Source: a virus
Taxonomy: Duplodnaviria; Heunggongvirae; Uroviricota; Caudoviricetes
IMG/VR virus record: IMGVR_UViG_2778261152_000004
Length of the DNA: 8,156 bases
Direction: 5' to 3' (one strand)
A program made the position numbers and the translations under genes. The notes under the pieces were generated by a model that was given only the letters and a program-made list of their open reading frames with translations, did no database searches and was not told the DNA's origin. Position 1 is the stretch's first letter, and each line of letters begins with the position of its first letter. Positions 1 to 6,334 of the stretch are shown here, in pieces.

Positions 1-546
1 ACCAAGATTGACGGTCTGAACATCCCCTGCCTGGTTCGTGGCGTTTTTTACGCCATGGACCATAGTGTTTTGATCTTCTTGATCTGTATCTTTATCTGTA
101 TCTTTATCTGTCGTGACTCGTCGTGACATGTGCGTGACATTTCGTGACGCGCCGTGACAATCGCCATTTTGTTCCCGCTTTCTTTCCCTCTCTCGCTGCG
201 CCCTCTTGCGCTCTGCAGGAGATTTTGCGGTTTGCGAAATATTGCCGTTGTCCTCTTTAAGCACCTGGCGTTTTTCCCATCCAGTGATTAAATCACCATC
301 AAGTACCCGCCCCTGCATCGTCTGCAAAATTGAATCAATTACCTCTTCTGTCACGTCGAGCGCACTTGCCAAATCTTCTGTCGTGACATCAATGTGACCT
401 CGCGTGACATTTCGTGACGCGCTCACCAGGAGGTGGATATACACTGCCATCACTGTTGCAATTGGCTGCCCTGACACCCTGGCAATTGTTCGCCACTTAG
501 GGTCATTTGGCATGTCATGCCATAATCTGAGCCAGGCGTTAGCCAT
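1..546 (-). CDS. Replication initiator (lambda O-like), N-terminal 182 codons; 3' end lies beyond the window start
   Basis: My own minus-strand translation (absent from the ORF track because no stop falls in the window): ATG at 544-546 preceded by GAGGTGAG. Protein begins MANAWLRLWHDMPNDPKWRTIARVSGQPIATVMAVYIHLLVSAS... and is open to position 1. Sits in the O position downstream of the cro-like and YdaT-like genes and contains periodic iterons, as O-type initiators do. Confidence 0.6.
   Translation of the reverse strand, partial: MANAWLRLWHDMPNDPKWRTIARVSGQPIATVMAVYIHLLVSASRNVTRGHIDVTTEDLASALDVTEEVIDSILQTMQGRVLDGDLITGWEKRQVLKEDNGNISQTAKSPAERKRAQRERERKREQNGDCHGASRNVTHMSRRVTTDKDTDKDTDQEDQNTMVHGVKNATNQAGDVQTVNLG
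61..160. repeat. Putative replication origin: AT-rich tract with 12-bp tandem repeat (61-110) followed by five CGTGAC iterons
   Basis: CGTGAC at 112-117, 122-127, 133-138, 143-148 and 153-158 (spacing 10/11/10/10 bp, one helical turn). Adjacent 61-110 is AT-rich and holds ctgtatctttat x2 (84-107). Iterons beside an AT-rich stretch inside the initiator gene is the lambda ori layout. Confidence 0.5.
351..422. repeat. Second iteron cluster, including a 21-bp exact direct repeat of the first cluster
   Basis: (C/T)GTGAC at 382-387, 393-398, 403-408 and 413-418 (spacing 11/10/10), plus an inverted copy GTCACG at 351-356. gcgtgacatttcgtgacgcgc occurs exactly at 132-152 and 402-422. Confidence 0.45.
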
Positions 547-617
547 ACTCACCTCTTCTGATACCGAATCTTTTTACTCACGAGTTGCCGGAAGCGATTC
601 GATATGGCTATTGTCAG

Positions 618-1043
618 TCAATGTACTGCCACAGCATTTCCTGCCGGGCCACCACGGTTCATCTGATTGAAACCGGCGATTGCCACTGCGACAAAATCAT
701 CAGCGTCTCTCACCAGTCGCTCCCGCGTCTCCACCAGCTCCCGAAAATAAGCTGAACTGTGGCTGCGCATTCTGGCCACCAGCAAAGGTGGCATTGCCTT
801 TTCGATCGCTGGTAACAACGCCTGAATTTTTTCAACTGCATCAGGGGTGTCTTTCTCTATCCAGCGGAAAATTTTCTGGGTATTGCGAGCCAGGGCTTCC
901 GGATGGCTGTCGTCGTACAGTTCAGGAAACGTCATACCCAACTCAAAATAAGCCTGGGTTATTCCAGCTGCCGGAACTTTTTCGCCATCAGGACGCGCCC
1001 AGGCATTCATCGCCATGCGGATGTGTTCATGCTTGATTTTCAT
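618..1043 (-). CDS. YdaT-like prophage protein (cII-position gene), 141 aa
   Basis: Track ORF 618..1115 trimmed to the internal start MKIKHEHI... (ATG at 1041-1043) preceded by a strong RBS AAGGGGGGA. The N-terminus matches my recollection of the Rac YdaT family. Overlaps the upstream cro-like gene by 17 nt. Confidence 0.65.
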   Translation of the reverse strand: MKIKHEHIRMAMNAWARPDGEKVPAAGITQAYFELGMTFPELYDDSHPEALARNTQKIFRWIEKDTPDAVEKIQALLPAIEKAMPPLLVARMRSHSSAYFRELVETRERLVRDADDFVAVAIAGFNQMNRGGPAGNAVAVH

Positions 1044-1269
1044 GAATCCCCCCTTGGTTAGAAGGCGGATTATGATCAGAACCGGGAATGACAACCGTCG
1101 GTATGTGTAACTCATATTTGAGCGCCCCGGCAGTGACTGCCTGAATTAGCAACGCCCATTTCCACGGAACCTCTTCCCCCCACATGCTGACTGTGGTTTT
1201 TGACGTTCCTAGAGCTGCGGCTGTTTTAACAACTCCGCCAAAATAGCCTAATACTTCTGATTTTTTCAT
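1027..1269 (-). CDS. Cro-like HTH regulator (DicC/YdaS type), 80 aa
   Basis: Track ORF 1027..1317 trimmed to MKKSEVLGYFGGVVKTAAALGTSKTTVSMW... (ATG at 1267-1269, GGAG 8 nt upstream). Small HTH protein transcribed divergently from the repressor. Confidence 0.65.
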   Translation of the reverse strand: MKKSEVLGYFGGVVKTAAALGTSKTTVSMWGEEVPWKWALLIQAVTAGALKYELHIPTVVIPGSDHNPPSNQGGIHENQA

Positions 1270-1298
1270 GAGTCGCTCCATAAAACTGAACGCCAAAA

Positions 1299-1360
1299 GT
1301 TTAATAATCAAAACCAAAGAAAGTCAAGAAACAAAACCATCTGTGTTTTAAAATCAAAAC
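1299..1360. promoter_or_regulatory. Divergent operator/promoter region (OR-like) between the cro-like and repressor genes
   Basis: Two 16-bp palindromes of form GTTTT-N6-AAAAC: gtttaataatcaaaac (1299-1314) and gttttaaaatcaaaac (1345-1360), 14/16 identical, centres 46 bp apart. CAAAAC recurs at 1309, 1332 and 1355 (23-bp spacing). Minus-strand -35 TTGACT at 1322-1327 for the cro-like gene. Plus-strand -10 TAAAAT at 1349-1354 ending 6 nt before the repressor ATG. Confidence 0.45.
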
Positions 1361-3165: not shown

Positions 3166-3223
3166 TTTCTGGTGACGTTTGGCGGTATCAGTTTTACTCC
3201 GTGACTGCTCTGCCGCCCTTTTT
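3166..3223 (+). ncRNA. dicF: DicF small RNA (ftsZ-targeting cell-division inhibitor)
   Basis: Sequence tttctggtgacgtttggcggtatcagttttactccgtgactgctctgccgccc followed by a T5 run matches my recollection of the ~53-nt DicF. Located between ydfC and dicB as in the dicBF operon. Exact 5' end uncertain by a few nt. Confidence 0.65.
3181..3223 (+). terminator. Rho-independent terminator forming the DicF 3' end
   Basis: GGCGG (3181-3185) pairs with CCGCC (3213-3217), followed by c then TTTTT (3219-3223). Confidence 0.5.
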
Positions 3224-3862: not shown

Positions 3863-6334
3863 ATGAGTAAAGTCTTTATTTGCGCCGCTATTCCTGACGA
3901 ACTGGCAACAAGGGAAGAAGGCGCTGTGGCTGTAGCCACAGCCATTGAAGCTGGCGACGAACGCCGTGCTCGAGCAAAATTTCACTGGCAGTTCCTGGAA
4001 CATTATCCGGCTGCTCAGGACTGCGCTTATAAATTTATTGTCTGCGAGGATAAACCTGGCATACCCCGCCCTGCCCTCGATTCATGGGATGCTGAATATA
4101 TGCAGGAAAACCGCTGGGATGAGGAGTCTGCTTCTTTTGTCCCGGTTGAGACTGAATCCGATCCGATGAACGTCACTTTTGACAAGCTGGCCCCTGAAGT
4201 ACAGAACGCTGTCATGGTTAAGTTCGACACATGTGAAAACATCACCGTTGATATGGTTATTAGCGCACAGGAATTGTTGCAGGAAGACATGGCAACATTC
4301 GACGGACATATCGTTGAAGCGTTGATGAAAATGCCAGAAGTTAACGCCATGTATCCGGAGCTTAAGTTGCACGCCATTGGGTGGGTTAAGCATAAATGTA
4401 TTCCTGGTGCTAAATGGCCCGAAATTCAGGCAGAGATGCGCATCTGGAAAAAACGTCGCGAAGGTGAACGCAAGGAAACCGGAAAATACACGTCTGTTGT
4501 TGATCTCGCCCGCGCCAGAACCAATCAACAGTACACTGAAAATTCAACAGGAAAAATCAGCCCGGTCATTGCTGCCATTCATCGCGAATACAAGCAGACA
4601 TGGAAAACACTGGATGACGAACTGGCCTACGCTCTCTGGCCTGGTGATGTGGATGCCGGAAACATTGACGGCAGCATCCATCGCTGGGCAAAAAAAGAAG
4701 TTATCGACAACGACCGCGAAGACTGGAAGCGTATCTCGGCATCAATGCGCAAACAGCCTGATGCCCTTCGCTACGACCGCCAGACTATTTTTGGCCTTGT
4801 CCGTGAGCGTCCGATCGACATTCACAAAGATCCCATAGCACTGAACAAATATATCTGCGAATACCTGACGACAAAGGGCGTGTTTGAGAATGAAGAAACA
4901 GACCTGGGCACTGTTGATGTTCTCCAGTCATCAGAAACACAAACTGATGCAGTGGAAACTGAGGTATCTGATATCCCAAAAAATGAAACCGCGCCGGAAG
5001 CTGAACCATCTGTAGAGCGTGAGGGGCCGTTCTATTTCCTCTTCGCAGATAAGGACGGAGAAAAATACGGTCGCGCAAACAAACTTTCTGGTCTGGATAA
5101 GGCACTGGCTGCTGGCGCCACTGAAATCACAAAAGAAGAATATTTTGCCCGAAAAAATGGCACATACACGGGCTTACCGCAAAATGTAGATACCGCTGAA
5201 GATTCAGAACAACCAGAGCCGATAAAAGTTACCGCTGACGAAGTAAACAAAATTATGCAGGCAGCCAATATCAGCCAGCCTGACGCCGATAAGTTGCTTG
5301 CTGCGTCACGTGGTGAATTTGTTGAAGGGATTAGTGACCCGAATGATCCGAAATGGGTTAAGGGGATCCAGACCCGCGATTCTGTGAACCAGAACCAGCA
5401 TGAATCGGAACGGAACTACCAAAAAGCGGAACAAAACAGCACAAATGCGTTACAAAACGAGCCAGAAACGAAACAGCCTGAACCAGTGGCGCAACTGGAA
5501 GTGGAAAAAGTCTGCACCGCCTGCGGTCAGACCGGCGGCGGCAACTGCCCTGATTGTGGCGCGGTGATGGGCGACGCAACATACCAGGAAACATTCGATG
5601 AAGAGTATCAGGTTGAAGTTCAGGAAGATGATCTGGAGGAAATGGAAGGCGCTGAACATCCACACAAGGAGAACACTGGCGGCAATCAGCATCACAATAG
5701 CGATAATGAAACTGGCGAGACGGCAGATCACTCAATTAAGGTGAACGGTCATCACGAAATCACATCCACCAGCAGGACGTGTGACCATCTAATGATCGAC
5801 CTTGAAACCATGGGAAAAAATCCTGATGCCCCGATCATCTCAATAGGTGCAATATTTTTCGATCCGCAAACCGGAGATATGGGACCGGAATTTAGTAAGA
5901 CTATCGATCTGGAAACTGCTGGCGGAGTCATTGATCGGGACACCATTAAATGGTGGCTTAAGCAATCACGCGAAGCGCAATCTGCCATTATGACCGATGA
6001 AATCCCGTTAGATGATGCACTGTTACAATTGCGGGAATTTATCGACGAAAACTCCGGTGAATTTTTTGTTCAGGTTTGGGGAAATGGAGCCAACTTCGAC
6101 AACACGATTTTGCGTCGTTCATACGAACGGCAGGGGATCCCCTGCCCGTGGCGTTACTACAACGATCGCGATGTACGCACAATCGTTGAGCTGGGGAAAG
6201 CCATAGACTTCGATGCCAGAACGGCTATTCCATTCGAAGGTGAGCGCCATAATGCACTTGATGACGCCCGTTACCAGGCAAAATACGTTTCAGTTATCTG
6301 GCAAAAACTGATCCCGAGTCAGGCTGATTCTTAA
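3863..6334 (+). CDS. Large prophage exonuclease: unknown N-terminal region, RecE-like central linker with CxxC-x7-CxxC zinc ribbon, C-terminal DEDDh 3'-5' exonuclease domain, 823 aa
   Basis: Single long ORF with a GAGG RBS. C-terminal motifs: Exo I MIDLETMG, Exo II VWGNGANFDNTIL, Exo III HNALDDARYQAKY. Central segment DKLLAASRGEFVEGISDPNDPKWVKGIQTRD...CTACGQTGGGNCPDCGAVMGDATYQETFDEE resembles what I recall of the RecE (exonuclease VIII) linker. Occupies the exo position upstream of xis-int. Confidence 0.8.
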   Translation: MSKVFICAAIPDELATREEGAVAVATAIEAGDERRARAKFHWQFLEHYPAAQDCAYKFIVCEDKPGIPRPALDSWDAEYMQENRWDEESASFVPVETESDPMNVTFDKLAPEVQNAVMVKFDTCENITVDMVISAQELLQEDMATFDGHIVEALMKMPEVNAMYPELKLHAIGWVKHKCIPGAKWPEIQAEMRIWKKRREGERKETGKYTSVVDLARARTNQQYTENSTGKISPVIAAIHREYKQTWKTLDDELAYALWPGDVDAGNIDGSIHRWAKKEVIDNDREDWKRISASMRKQPDALRYDRQTIFGLVRERPIDIHKDPIALNKYICEYLTTKGVFENEETDLGTVDVLQSSETQTDAVETEVSDIPKNETAPEAEPSVEREGPFYFLFADKDGEKYGRANKLSGLDKALAAGATEITKEEYFARKNGTYTGLPQNVDTAEDSEQPEPIKVTADEVNKIMQAANISQPDADKLLAASRGEFVEGISDPNDPKWVKGIQTRDSVNQNQHESERNYQKAEQNSTNALQNEPETKQPEPVAQLEVEKVCTACGQTGGGNCPDCGAVMGDATYQETFDEEYQVEVQEDDLEEMEGAEHPHKENTGGNQHHNSDNETGETADHSIKVNGHHEITSTSRTCDHLMIDLETMGKNPDAPIISIGAIFFDPQTGDMGPEFSKTIDLETAGGVIDRDTIKWWLKQSREAQSAIMTDEIPLDDALLQLREFIDENSGEFFVQVWGNGANFDNTILRRSYERQGIPCPWRYYNDRDVRTIVELGKAIDFDARTAIPFEGERHNALDDARYQAKYVSVIWQKLIPSQADS

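Follow-up and report, generated by a model that had tools for sequence, protein, structure and literature searches.

A possible bipartite replication origin, with two arrays of one short repeat, inside the initiator gene of a Qin-like lambdoid element

Why should a single phage gene carry two separate clusters of the same short repeat, about 230 base pairs (bp) apart? The question is raised by an 8,156-nucleotide (nt) stretch of viral DNA (Caudoviricetes; IMG/VR virus record IMGVR_UViG_2778261152_000004), the whole of which is referred to here as the window. Its positions 1 to 546 hold, on the minus strand, the first 182 codons of a putative replication-initiator gene (ATG at 546-544), which continues past the left window end and contains both clusters, termed array A (112-158) and array B (382-418). 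An earlier note on this DNA had proposed that one cluster may be the origin and the other an autoregulatory or handcuffing site, or that the duplication may reflect slippage. Based on the sequence comparisons described below, the 5' third of the gene is read here as a bipartite replication origin, in which array A and an A-rich tract would form the core and array B would be an auxiliary initiator-binding array; we assign this reading a probability of roughly 55%.

The hexamer CGTGAC occurs 11 times in the window versus 3.0 expected, a count reached in none of 200 dinucleotide shuffles, and nine of the 11 copies fall within 112-418. Array A is comprised of five direct GTCACG repeats in the coding sense (minus strand; 158-153, 148-143, 138-133, 127-122, and 117-112), which appear on the plus strand as exact CGTGAC copies at 112, 122, 133, 143, and 153, with spacings of 10, 11, 10, and 10 bp. 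Array B, in the same orientation, has GTCACG at 418-413, 408-403, and 387-382, and GTCACA at 398-393; on the plus strand these are exact CGTGAC copies at 382, 403, and 413 and the one-mismatch TGTGAC at 393-398, spaced by 11, 10, and 10 bp. An exact 21-bp match between the arrays (GCGTGACATTTCGTGACGCGC; 132-152 and 402-422) and an exact 11-mer match (TCTGTCGTGAC; 107-117 and 377-387) share an offset of 270 bp, or 90 codons, in frame. The earlier note had described five array A repeats at 10-11-bp spacing, an adjoining AT-rich tract, and the shared 21-bp segment, all of which hold; its four repeats in the second cluster stand if the TGTGAC variant is counted, whereas the exact copies number three. 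A single inverted copy at 350-355 (GTCACG on the plus strand, CGTGAC on the coding strand), absent from that description, coincides with codons D64-V65-T66 at the start of a predicted recognition helix.

The repeats impose recurring peptides on the protein, as the earlier note had also stated: ASRNVT is found at amino acids (aa) 42-47 and 133-138, and SRRVTT at aa 141-146. Array B encodes aa 43-55 (ASRNVTRGHIDVT), which in an AlphaFold2 model span the last part of helix 29-49 and the loop leading into a helix-turn-helix; model confidence dips to ∼60 at this peptide, and homologues have insertions of 7-21 residues there. Array A encodes aa 130-145 in a predicted disordered inter-domain linker, with a predicted local distance difference test (pLDDT) score of ∼33. 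In the complete 46-kb phage genome deposited as Tritos, which has the same initiator gene, arrays A and B are the sole clusters of the motif.

The occurrence of both arrays extends well beyond this element. The survey covered 8 diverse homologues plus another 58 loci, each from a different species, drawn from Gamma-, Beta-, and Alphaproteobacteria as well as a few metagenome bins; 61 genes were scored for a shared 5-mer core (GTCAC, GTAAC, or GAACG) present three or more times at each array position. The same core is found at both positions in 45 of the 61 genes (29 GTCAC, 6 GTAAC, and 10 GAACG), and in no gene (0/61) are the cores of the two arrays discordant; the remainder includes six genes with array A only, two with array B only by this threshold, and eight with other or weak repeats. 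Outside the genes, the background of the three cores is 0.5-1.1 per kb. At the array A position, 51/61 genes have one of the three commonest cores three or more times, and further members have other phased repeats there. In most genes the arrays are located at gene nt ∼129-165 (B) and ∼345-490 (A), with A adjoining a purine-rich tract. The earlier note had called for a comparison of one versus two arrays among homologues, and the outcome is two in most; its remark that two arrays in one initiator gene are unusual is apt among characterized systems but not within this family, where they are the rule.

The protein alignment shows that the peptides at both sites change together between lineages, with the same peptide at both sites of a given protein (ASRNVT in the window protein, GNAGVTQSNA in P0087, and VTRGNAGVTHGNA in P0097). 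Between core classes the peptides are wholly different (ASRNVTRGH, GNAGVTQSNA, and NATERGRTQ), and the 10-11-bp periodicity is unchanged. A repeat at the protein level is ruled out by this period, which is not a multiple of three and brings all three frames into use, and by the change of peptide between classes. In the earlier note, iterons absent from homologues whose protein sequence is conserved were to count against an origin; what was found is the opposite, as the arrays are conserved and the peptides that they encode are not.

Changes of core class occur in concert. In a rough neighbor-joining tree of the N-terminal domain (N-domain), from which the array B loop was masked, genes of different core class are adjacent several times, amounting by our reading to ∼5 core changes, always in both arrays. 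Two genes with 78% amino acid identity, from Erwinia (L035) and Enterobacter (L036), belong to different core classes, and their C/A difference recurs at nine homologous sites spread over both arrays (forward at 142, 160, 181, 224, 412, 422, and 451; inverted at 175 and 214): L035 has GTCAC/GTGAC and L036 has GTAAC/GTTAC at all nine. The site homologous to the inverted copy at 350-355 is GTTAC in L036, of the GTAAC class, and GTGAC in L035, of the GTCAC class. The same base changed at nine sites is as expected if a single reader recognizes all of them and has shifted its preference. Taken with the survey, this pattern makes it highly probable that both arrays function in cis and have a single specificity determinant as their reader.

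Array B also appears to be selected as DNA. Among 21 GTCAC-class genes aligned without gaps (median pairwise nucleotide identity of 69%), the codons of the array B cores are fixed: A43 is GCG in 20/21, S44 is TCA in 21/21, V47 is GTC in 21/21, T48 is ACG in 21/21, G50 is GGT in 21/21, H51 is CAC in 20/20, V54 is GTC in 21/21, and T55 is ACG in 20/21. Synonymous entropy is 1.77 bits at the spacer codon R49, likewise an invariant residue, and 1.5-2.4 bits at other invariant positions of the protein with four- or six-fold degeneracy (R7, L8, P13, R19, T20, R23, P28, V32, G79, R80, V81, G89, and R93). At the inverted copy, V65 is encoded by GTG in 18/18 GTCAC-class genes with Val at that position. 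Because the core codons are frozen where synonymous sites elsewhere vary, array B is, by the measure of these alignments, held by purifying selection on nucleotides and not merely on the protein.

Fixed position in 45/61 genes and frozen synonymous sites rule out an origin of array B by slippage or chance, and the earlier suggestion that the duplication may reflect slippage is not borne out for an array that is family-wide, fixed in position, and under DNA-level purifying selection. Either array can be longer or shorter by two repeats (21 bp, 7 codons) between close relatives, and from this comparison slippage explains copy-number changes among close relatives only, not the existence of array B. 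A further alternative is that array B has no function of its own, being a paralogous part-copy of array A in a permissive loop that is kept similar by gene conversion or by protein constraint. The two-repeat steps are consistent with such a copy, as is the location of the array B peptide at the dip in model confidence where homologues have insertions. Identity between B and A is, moreover, greater within genomes than between them: the longest identical stretches within a genome are 39 nt (L005), 29 nt (L003), and 21 nt (the window gene), variable spacers included, and in the GTAAC class the mean longest common substring is 19.4 nt within genomes versus 10.8 nt between genomes. Since these long identities include spacers that differ between relatives, they indicate sequence exchange between the arrays in some genomes. 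In the GTCAC class, however, the median shared stretch is 10 nt within genomes versus 9 nt between them, yet 21 lineages have unchanged cores at fixed positions alongside spacer codons that drift by point substitution, which argues for purifying selection on array B and not for overwriting from A. Direct repeats on either side of the helix-turn-helix codons, 230 bp from each other, also put the gene at risk of deleterious deletion and should be lost if useless. Protein constraint cannot account for a period of 10-11 bp or for peptides that are replaced outright from class to class. A passive copy is a remote prospect in our estimate.

If both arrays are read by one determinant, which protein is the reader? 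The full gene in Escherichia coli UTI89 is 1071 nt (356 aa; locus UTI89_RS07065, protein WP_001262357.1; 100% identity) and occupies the position of lambda O, after cro and YdaT. Its product matches the PHROG 3729 family (replication initiation protein) across the full protein length (E 5e-258), and is named in public sources as phage replisome organizer or DNA replication protein O. The gene order repressor, cro, YdaT, initiator gene is found in 7/7 homologues fetched with flanks, and is followed by an IstB/DnaC-like ATPase gene in four (L003/L004, L005, L006, and L007), by a lambda-P-like gene in two (L009 and L010), and by a DUF977 gene in L008, as in UTI89. Synteny, uncurated families (PHROG), and source names thus support the assignment as a replication-initiator gene, in agreement with the earlier note.

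The simplest candidate for the reader is a product of the element itself, the N-domain, whose codons lie around the arrays. The AlphaFold2 model (mean pLDDT of 60.8) has a helical N-domain at aa 2-77 (pLDDT of 60-84 by block), in which helices 56-63 and 67-77 form the helix-turn-helix, a basic helix at 110-127, and a confident C-terminal domain (C-domain) at aa 245-332 (pLDDT of ∼90). No curated Pfam or NCBIfam model, including that of the lambda-O family (Phage_rep_O), matches the protein above threshold. The best curated match is Phage_rep_org_N (PF09681), at 16.1 bits versus a cut-off of 23.3 and aligned over model positions 1-119 of 121; TIGR01714 likewise falls below its cut-off (15.4 versus 49.8 bits), and the weak Pfam matches are limited to HTH_Crp_2 and Phage_rep_org_N. 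A Foldseek search of the model against the PDB gave no match with E <1, and faint winged-helix-type matches only. As there is neither a curated family nor a structural match, DNA binding by the N-domain is predicted from its helix-turn-helix-like model and these weak matches; we consider it probable that the N-domain is the specificity determinant that reads the arrays.

Another protein, such as a host factor, the YdaT/CII-type protein, or the DUF977 protein, could bind the repeats instead. Such a binder gains some weight from the lack of a curated DNA-binding family assignment for the N-domain, whose binding is a prediction, and from the YdaT gene just upstream in 7/7 enterobacterial-type contexts examined. 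The arrays, however, are found wherever the N-domain is, inside its gene, and this includes three distant loci in which the tested upstream open reading frames (ORFs) have no YdaT match (DNA polymerase III beta, T5orf172, and NinB were found instead). The presence of arrays where an upstream YdaT is absent indicates that they go with the initiator gene and not with YdaT. The YdaT operator is reportedly a different sequence, the inverted repeat TTGATT-N6-AATCAA. Hosts from three proteobacterial classes argue against one host factor, and switches of core between close relatives in the same host group point to a reader encoded by the element. We regard binding by a protein other than the initiator as very unlikely.

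The candidate DNA unwinding element (DUE) adjoins array A. This tract, A-rich on the coding strand, spans 61-111, encodes DKDTDKDTDQEDQ, and includes the G+C minimum of the gene (27.5% in 62-101; 35% over 82-121), 2.9 copies of a 12-bp unit at 77-111, and two GATC sites (72-75 and 81-84). Its peptide (DKDTDK) is in the disordered linker, like that of array A, and the two features are at codons 130-162, between the N-domain and the C-domain. A purine tract (GATAAAGATA or GATACAGATA) follows array A in the homologues inspected. Directly after the A-rich tract is an imperfect palindrome at 32-62, with 13-nt arms and a 5-nt loop. In enterobacterial homologues (L003, L005, L006, L007, L009, and L010), a TGGCG-N5-7-CGCCA core is retained and the outer arms vary compensatorily (GGTTCA/TGAACC versus GTCC/GGAC), a comparison of eight sequences made without statistics. 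The palindrome scores as terminator-like on the plus strand, antisense to the gene. Two candidate features were rejected: resemblance of the tract to oriC 13-mers (GATCTnTTnTTTT; 2 matches at ≤2 mismatches versus 4.6 expected), and an internal promoter formed by the repeats (plus strand, 134-161), which is at chance level (3 promoter-like hits in 1-1400 versus 1.4 expected).

From a layout common to ori-lambda and the oriL of phage SPP1, array A, the A-rich tract, and the palindrome would constitute the core origin. The N-terminal helix-turn-helix domain would bind the array A repeats, which recur once per helical turn, so that neighboring initiators line up along the same face of the DNA; the resulting initiator complex would destabilize the A-rich tract, and the host helicase would then be loaded. 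Array B, 230 bp upstream in codons for a loop of the DNA-binding domain, would be a second, auxiliary array for the same initiator, and initiators on B and A could contact each other by looping of the ∼230 bp between them, increasing occupancy and cooperativity at the core. In this scheme the initiator as the binding protein, the melting of the A-rich tract, and the sign of the effect of array B are the elements that we infer.

The core has clear counterparts, and the class of layout, an iteron origin inside the initiator gene, is one that is already known. As in ori-lambda and the Shiga toxin (Stx) phages P27 and 933W, whose origins have six iterons, the putative origin is contained in the initiator gene, where the N-terminal DNA-binding part gives way to the C-terminal part. 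It also shares with ori-lambda the order of repeats, AT-rich tract, and inverted repeat, with the window palindrome in the place of that inverted repeat, and the imposition of amino acids on the protein by the repeats. Lambda iterons, in contrast, are ∼19 bp, dyad-symmetric, and in one contiguous array, whereas the window repeats are direct 10-11-bp units with a 6-7-bp core, and the window gene has a second array 230 bp upstream in codons of the DNA-binding domain. The protein lacks a Phage_rep_O match above cut-off and falls outside the lambda O family, and in UTI89 and Tritos the initiator gene is followed by a DUF977 gene, with no helicase-loader or P-like gene, unlike the lambda-type order. 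The resemblance to ori-lambda drawn in the earlier note is therefore one of layout (array and AT-rich tract) and not of repeat type or protein family. In the Stx phages, two extra iterons are weakly bound yet crucial for plasmid establishment, and lengthen the protein (PMC7466680). By analogy, these extra iterons could be a precedent for a positive role of additional sites such as array B.

The G38P protein of SPP1 similarly binds direct repeats (AB boxes) by an AT-rich DUE in the middle of its own gene (oriL, gene 38), and has a second discrete region with the same repeat organization (oriR), a resemblance in logic and not in arrangement; the NCBI and PHROG names for the window family also use the term replisome organizer. 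The oriR of SPP1, however, is ∼13 kb away, intergenic, and with its own AT-rich tract, whereas array B is intragenic, 230 bp away, and without an AT-rich tract, and Tritos has no distal cluster. No homology to G38P was detected by hhalign of the N-domain alignment (probability 0.4%, E 0.14). In phage P4, ori and crr are two clusters of the same short iteron, both bound by alpha and both cis-acting in replication. These two separated clusters of one short iteron are, like the extra Stx iterons, a precedent for array B as a looped auxiliary array, with the differences that ori and crr are ∼4.5 kb apart, that alpha is a primase-helicase unrelated to the window protein, and that the P4 sites are outside codons for the DNA-binding domain. 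The location of the second array within such codons, its wide conservation and selection as DNA, and the concerted motif switches appear to be new; the literature searched, the coverage of which was incomplete, yielded no earlier account of an origin with two arrays for this family.

Does array B promote initiation or restrain it? A positive role, as a part of the origin and not a negative control site, is at slightly under even odds in our estimate, and a negative role is nearly as likely as a positive auxiliary one. As a specific negative control site, array B could block early rightward transcription (autoregulation), or could handcuff or titrate with array A in cis or in trans. It has the motif and orientation of array A, is outside the array-plus-DUE core, and is dispensed with by some lineages. 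It also separates the promoter region from the remainder of the replication operon, and a conserved inverted copy comes after it. In iteron plasmids, inverted iteron halves are operator sites. P1 (incA) and F (incC) have an additional array of origin iterons that is not part of the minimal origin and is located across from or within the rep region, much as array B has the core of array A and is 230 bp from the array-plus-DUE core; those arrays differ in being negative controls of plasmid copy number, mostly intergenic, with 19-22-bp units two helical turns apart. Autoregulation is harder to reconcile with the lack of a promoter overlapping array B, where promoter-like hits are at chance level, and with array A, which would be an equal block to transcription and would leave array B as little extra roadblock. 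Nothing in the sequence favors repression over activation. To our knowledge, lytic phage replication has no need of copy-number limitation, and we know of no autoregulation by lambda O. We hold a negative control site to be possible but doubtful, and continue to favor an auxiliary array in a bipartite origin.

Several points weigh against the bipartite origin. Approximately 6-10 family members have array A only (L046, L047, L062, and others), which indicates that array B is dispensable for the basic mechanism. Sequence exchange between B and A, as the 39 nt in L005 suggest, could contribute to the concordance of cores. The helical phase between the arrays clusters only to a moderate degree (resultant length of 0.44, a value confounded by shared ancestry and by repeat gain and loss) and lends looping no clear support. 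The N-domain is below every curated family threshold, and the structure search gave no significant match. Extra iteron arrays in plasmids, such as P1 incA and F incC, act negatively. The searchable literature, finally, contains no binding, unwinding, or replication experiment on any member of the family.

Some homologues depart from the common arrangement in other ways. In L054 (from a Serratia metagenome-assembled genome) and L065 (Pantoea), both arrays are missing and ACTACGTA-type repeats are located after the N-domain (gene nt ∼320-370); the middle region differs as well, and its peptide YVYYV...VGISRNPWAR looks by eye to be of the GIY-YIG/T5orf172 type. The 302-aa homologue P0019 from E. 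coli is missing precisely the stretch in which most of array A, the A-rich tract, and the palindrome are encoded, and retains array B and both domains. Judging from this deletion, P0019 may be an origin-deleted, replication-dead prophage copy.

In L035 and L036, extra motif copies (2711-2727 in both; gene nt 211-227) extend over the first codons of the predicted recognition helix, where L035 reads DVT-ERH (GAC GTG ACG GAA CGT CAC G) and L036 reads DVT-VSN (GAC GTT ACA GTG AGT AAC G), such that the base that distinguishes GTCAC from GTAAC is also the difference between the His and Asn codons. A more speculative proposal, which we consider unlikely, is that the placement of array B in the codons of its own reader links reader and site. 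The N-domain module would then carry its cognate sites through lambdoid mosaic recombination, array B would re-seed array A by gene conversion, nascent initiator would load in cis, and overlaps of the L035/L036 type would let one base change alter both site and helix residue (His to Asn), such that new origin specificities could arise in a self-referential way. If true, such a self-linked reader and site would be a route to replication incompatibility groups.

The initiator family is common. A 1320-bp query (window 1-1320, comprising cro, YdaT, and the start of the initiator gene) is present over most of its length in 1018/5426 complete E. coli genomes, and relatives are found in three proteobacterial classes. 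If both arrays bind the initiator, the family would offer a compact natural system for joint change of initiator and site specificity, with ready cognate sets (the GTCAC, GTAAC, and GAACG classes, close relatives that differ included), and an example of an essential cis element within the codons of the domain that reads it. It would also allow a clean test of the role of a second iteron array in a phage origin, since array B can be removed by synonymous changes that leave the protein untouched. For annotation, the arrays would be a simple signature of origins in many lambdoid prophages.

Beyond the N-domain, the C-terminal parts of the initiators vary with the neighboring gene. A PDB sequence search with the window protein matched only its last 24 residues, and matched them to DnaT. 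These residues (ISEPDNEIPPGFRG and those preceding it; L001 positions 5771-5842, outside the window) are similar to the C-terminal end of DnaT, a primosomal protein of the host (NCBIfam E 7e-4; PDB 6aep, 2ru8, and 9zbt), and the DUF977 gene that follows in UTI89 is at L001 5886-6308. As homologues with other C-terminal parts have a DnaC/IstB-like or lambda-P-like gene next, the comparison suggests that C-domain type and loader strategy are swapped as a unit between initiators, and that the UTI89-type initiator may recruit host DnaB-DnaC directly. The Rac prophage protein YdaU was considered as a studied relative and rejected, as it has a different N-domain (DUF1376). Five hybrid initiators (P0032, P0041, P0047, P0048, and P0053) share their middle and C-terminal parts with the window protein but have an unrelated N-terminal part, which by eye resembles the DUF1376 type assigned to Rac YdaU by RefSeq. 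The parts meet at the repeat/acidic-tract region (EQEQEK in the hybrids), so that initiator modules appear to recombine at the origin segment.

A prophage identical to the window (100%) is present in E. coli UTI89 and in many further strains, the majority of them extraintestinal. A scan of viral contigs returned 100%-identical copies only, and 22 phage records were matched in all, with none of the classical model phages carrying the family. The window corresponds to the part of a Qin-like lambdoid element that is concerned with immunity, replication, and integration. Upstream of the initiator gene on the minus strand are the YdaT (CII-like) gene (1042-618) and cro/DicC (1269-1027). The plus strand encodes a cI-like repressor (1361-1999; an ORF of 212 aa with a helix-turn-helix-like N-terminal part and a LexA/S24-like C-terminal part), as well as large exonuclease, xis, and int genes. 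Among known RNA families, the only one matched was the DicF antisense small RNA, distant from the arrays and full length (3167-3218, plus strand; RF00039, 76.7 bits, E 4.6e-16). It is flanked by ydfA-C-like and dicB-like genes, and a full-length DicF in this setting confirms a Qin-type cell-division-inhibition cassette in the prophage. The repressor is annotated variably: RefSeq for UTI89 has only the C-terminal 112 aa, as a LexA family protein (L001 3322-3660), and one phage record has 199 aa.

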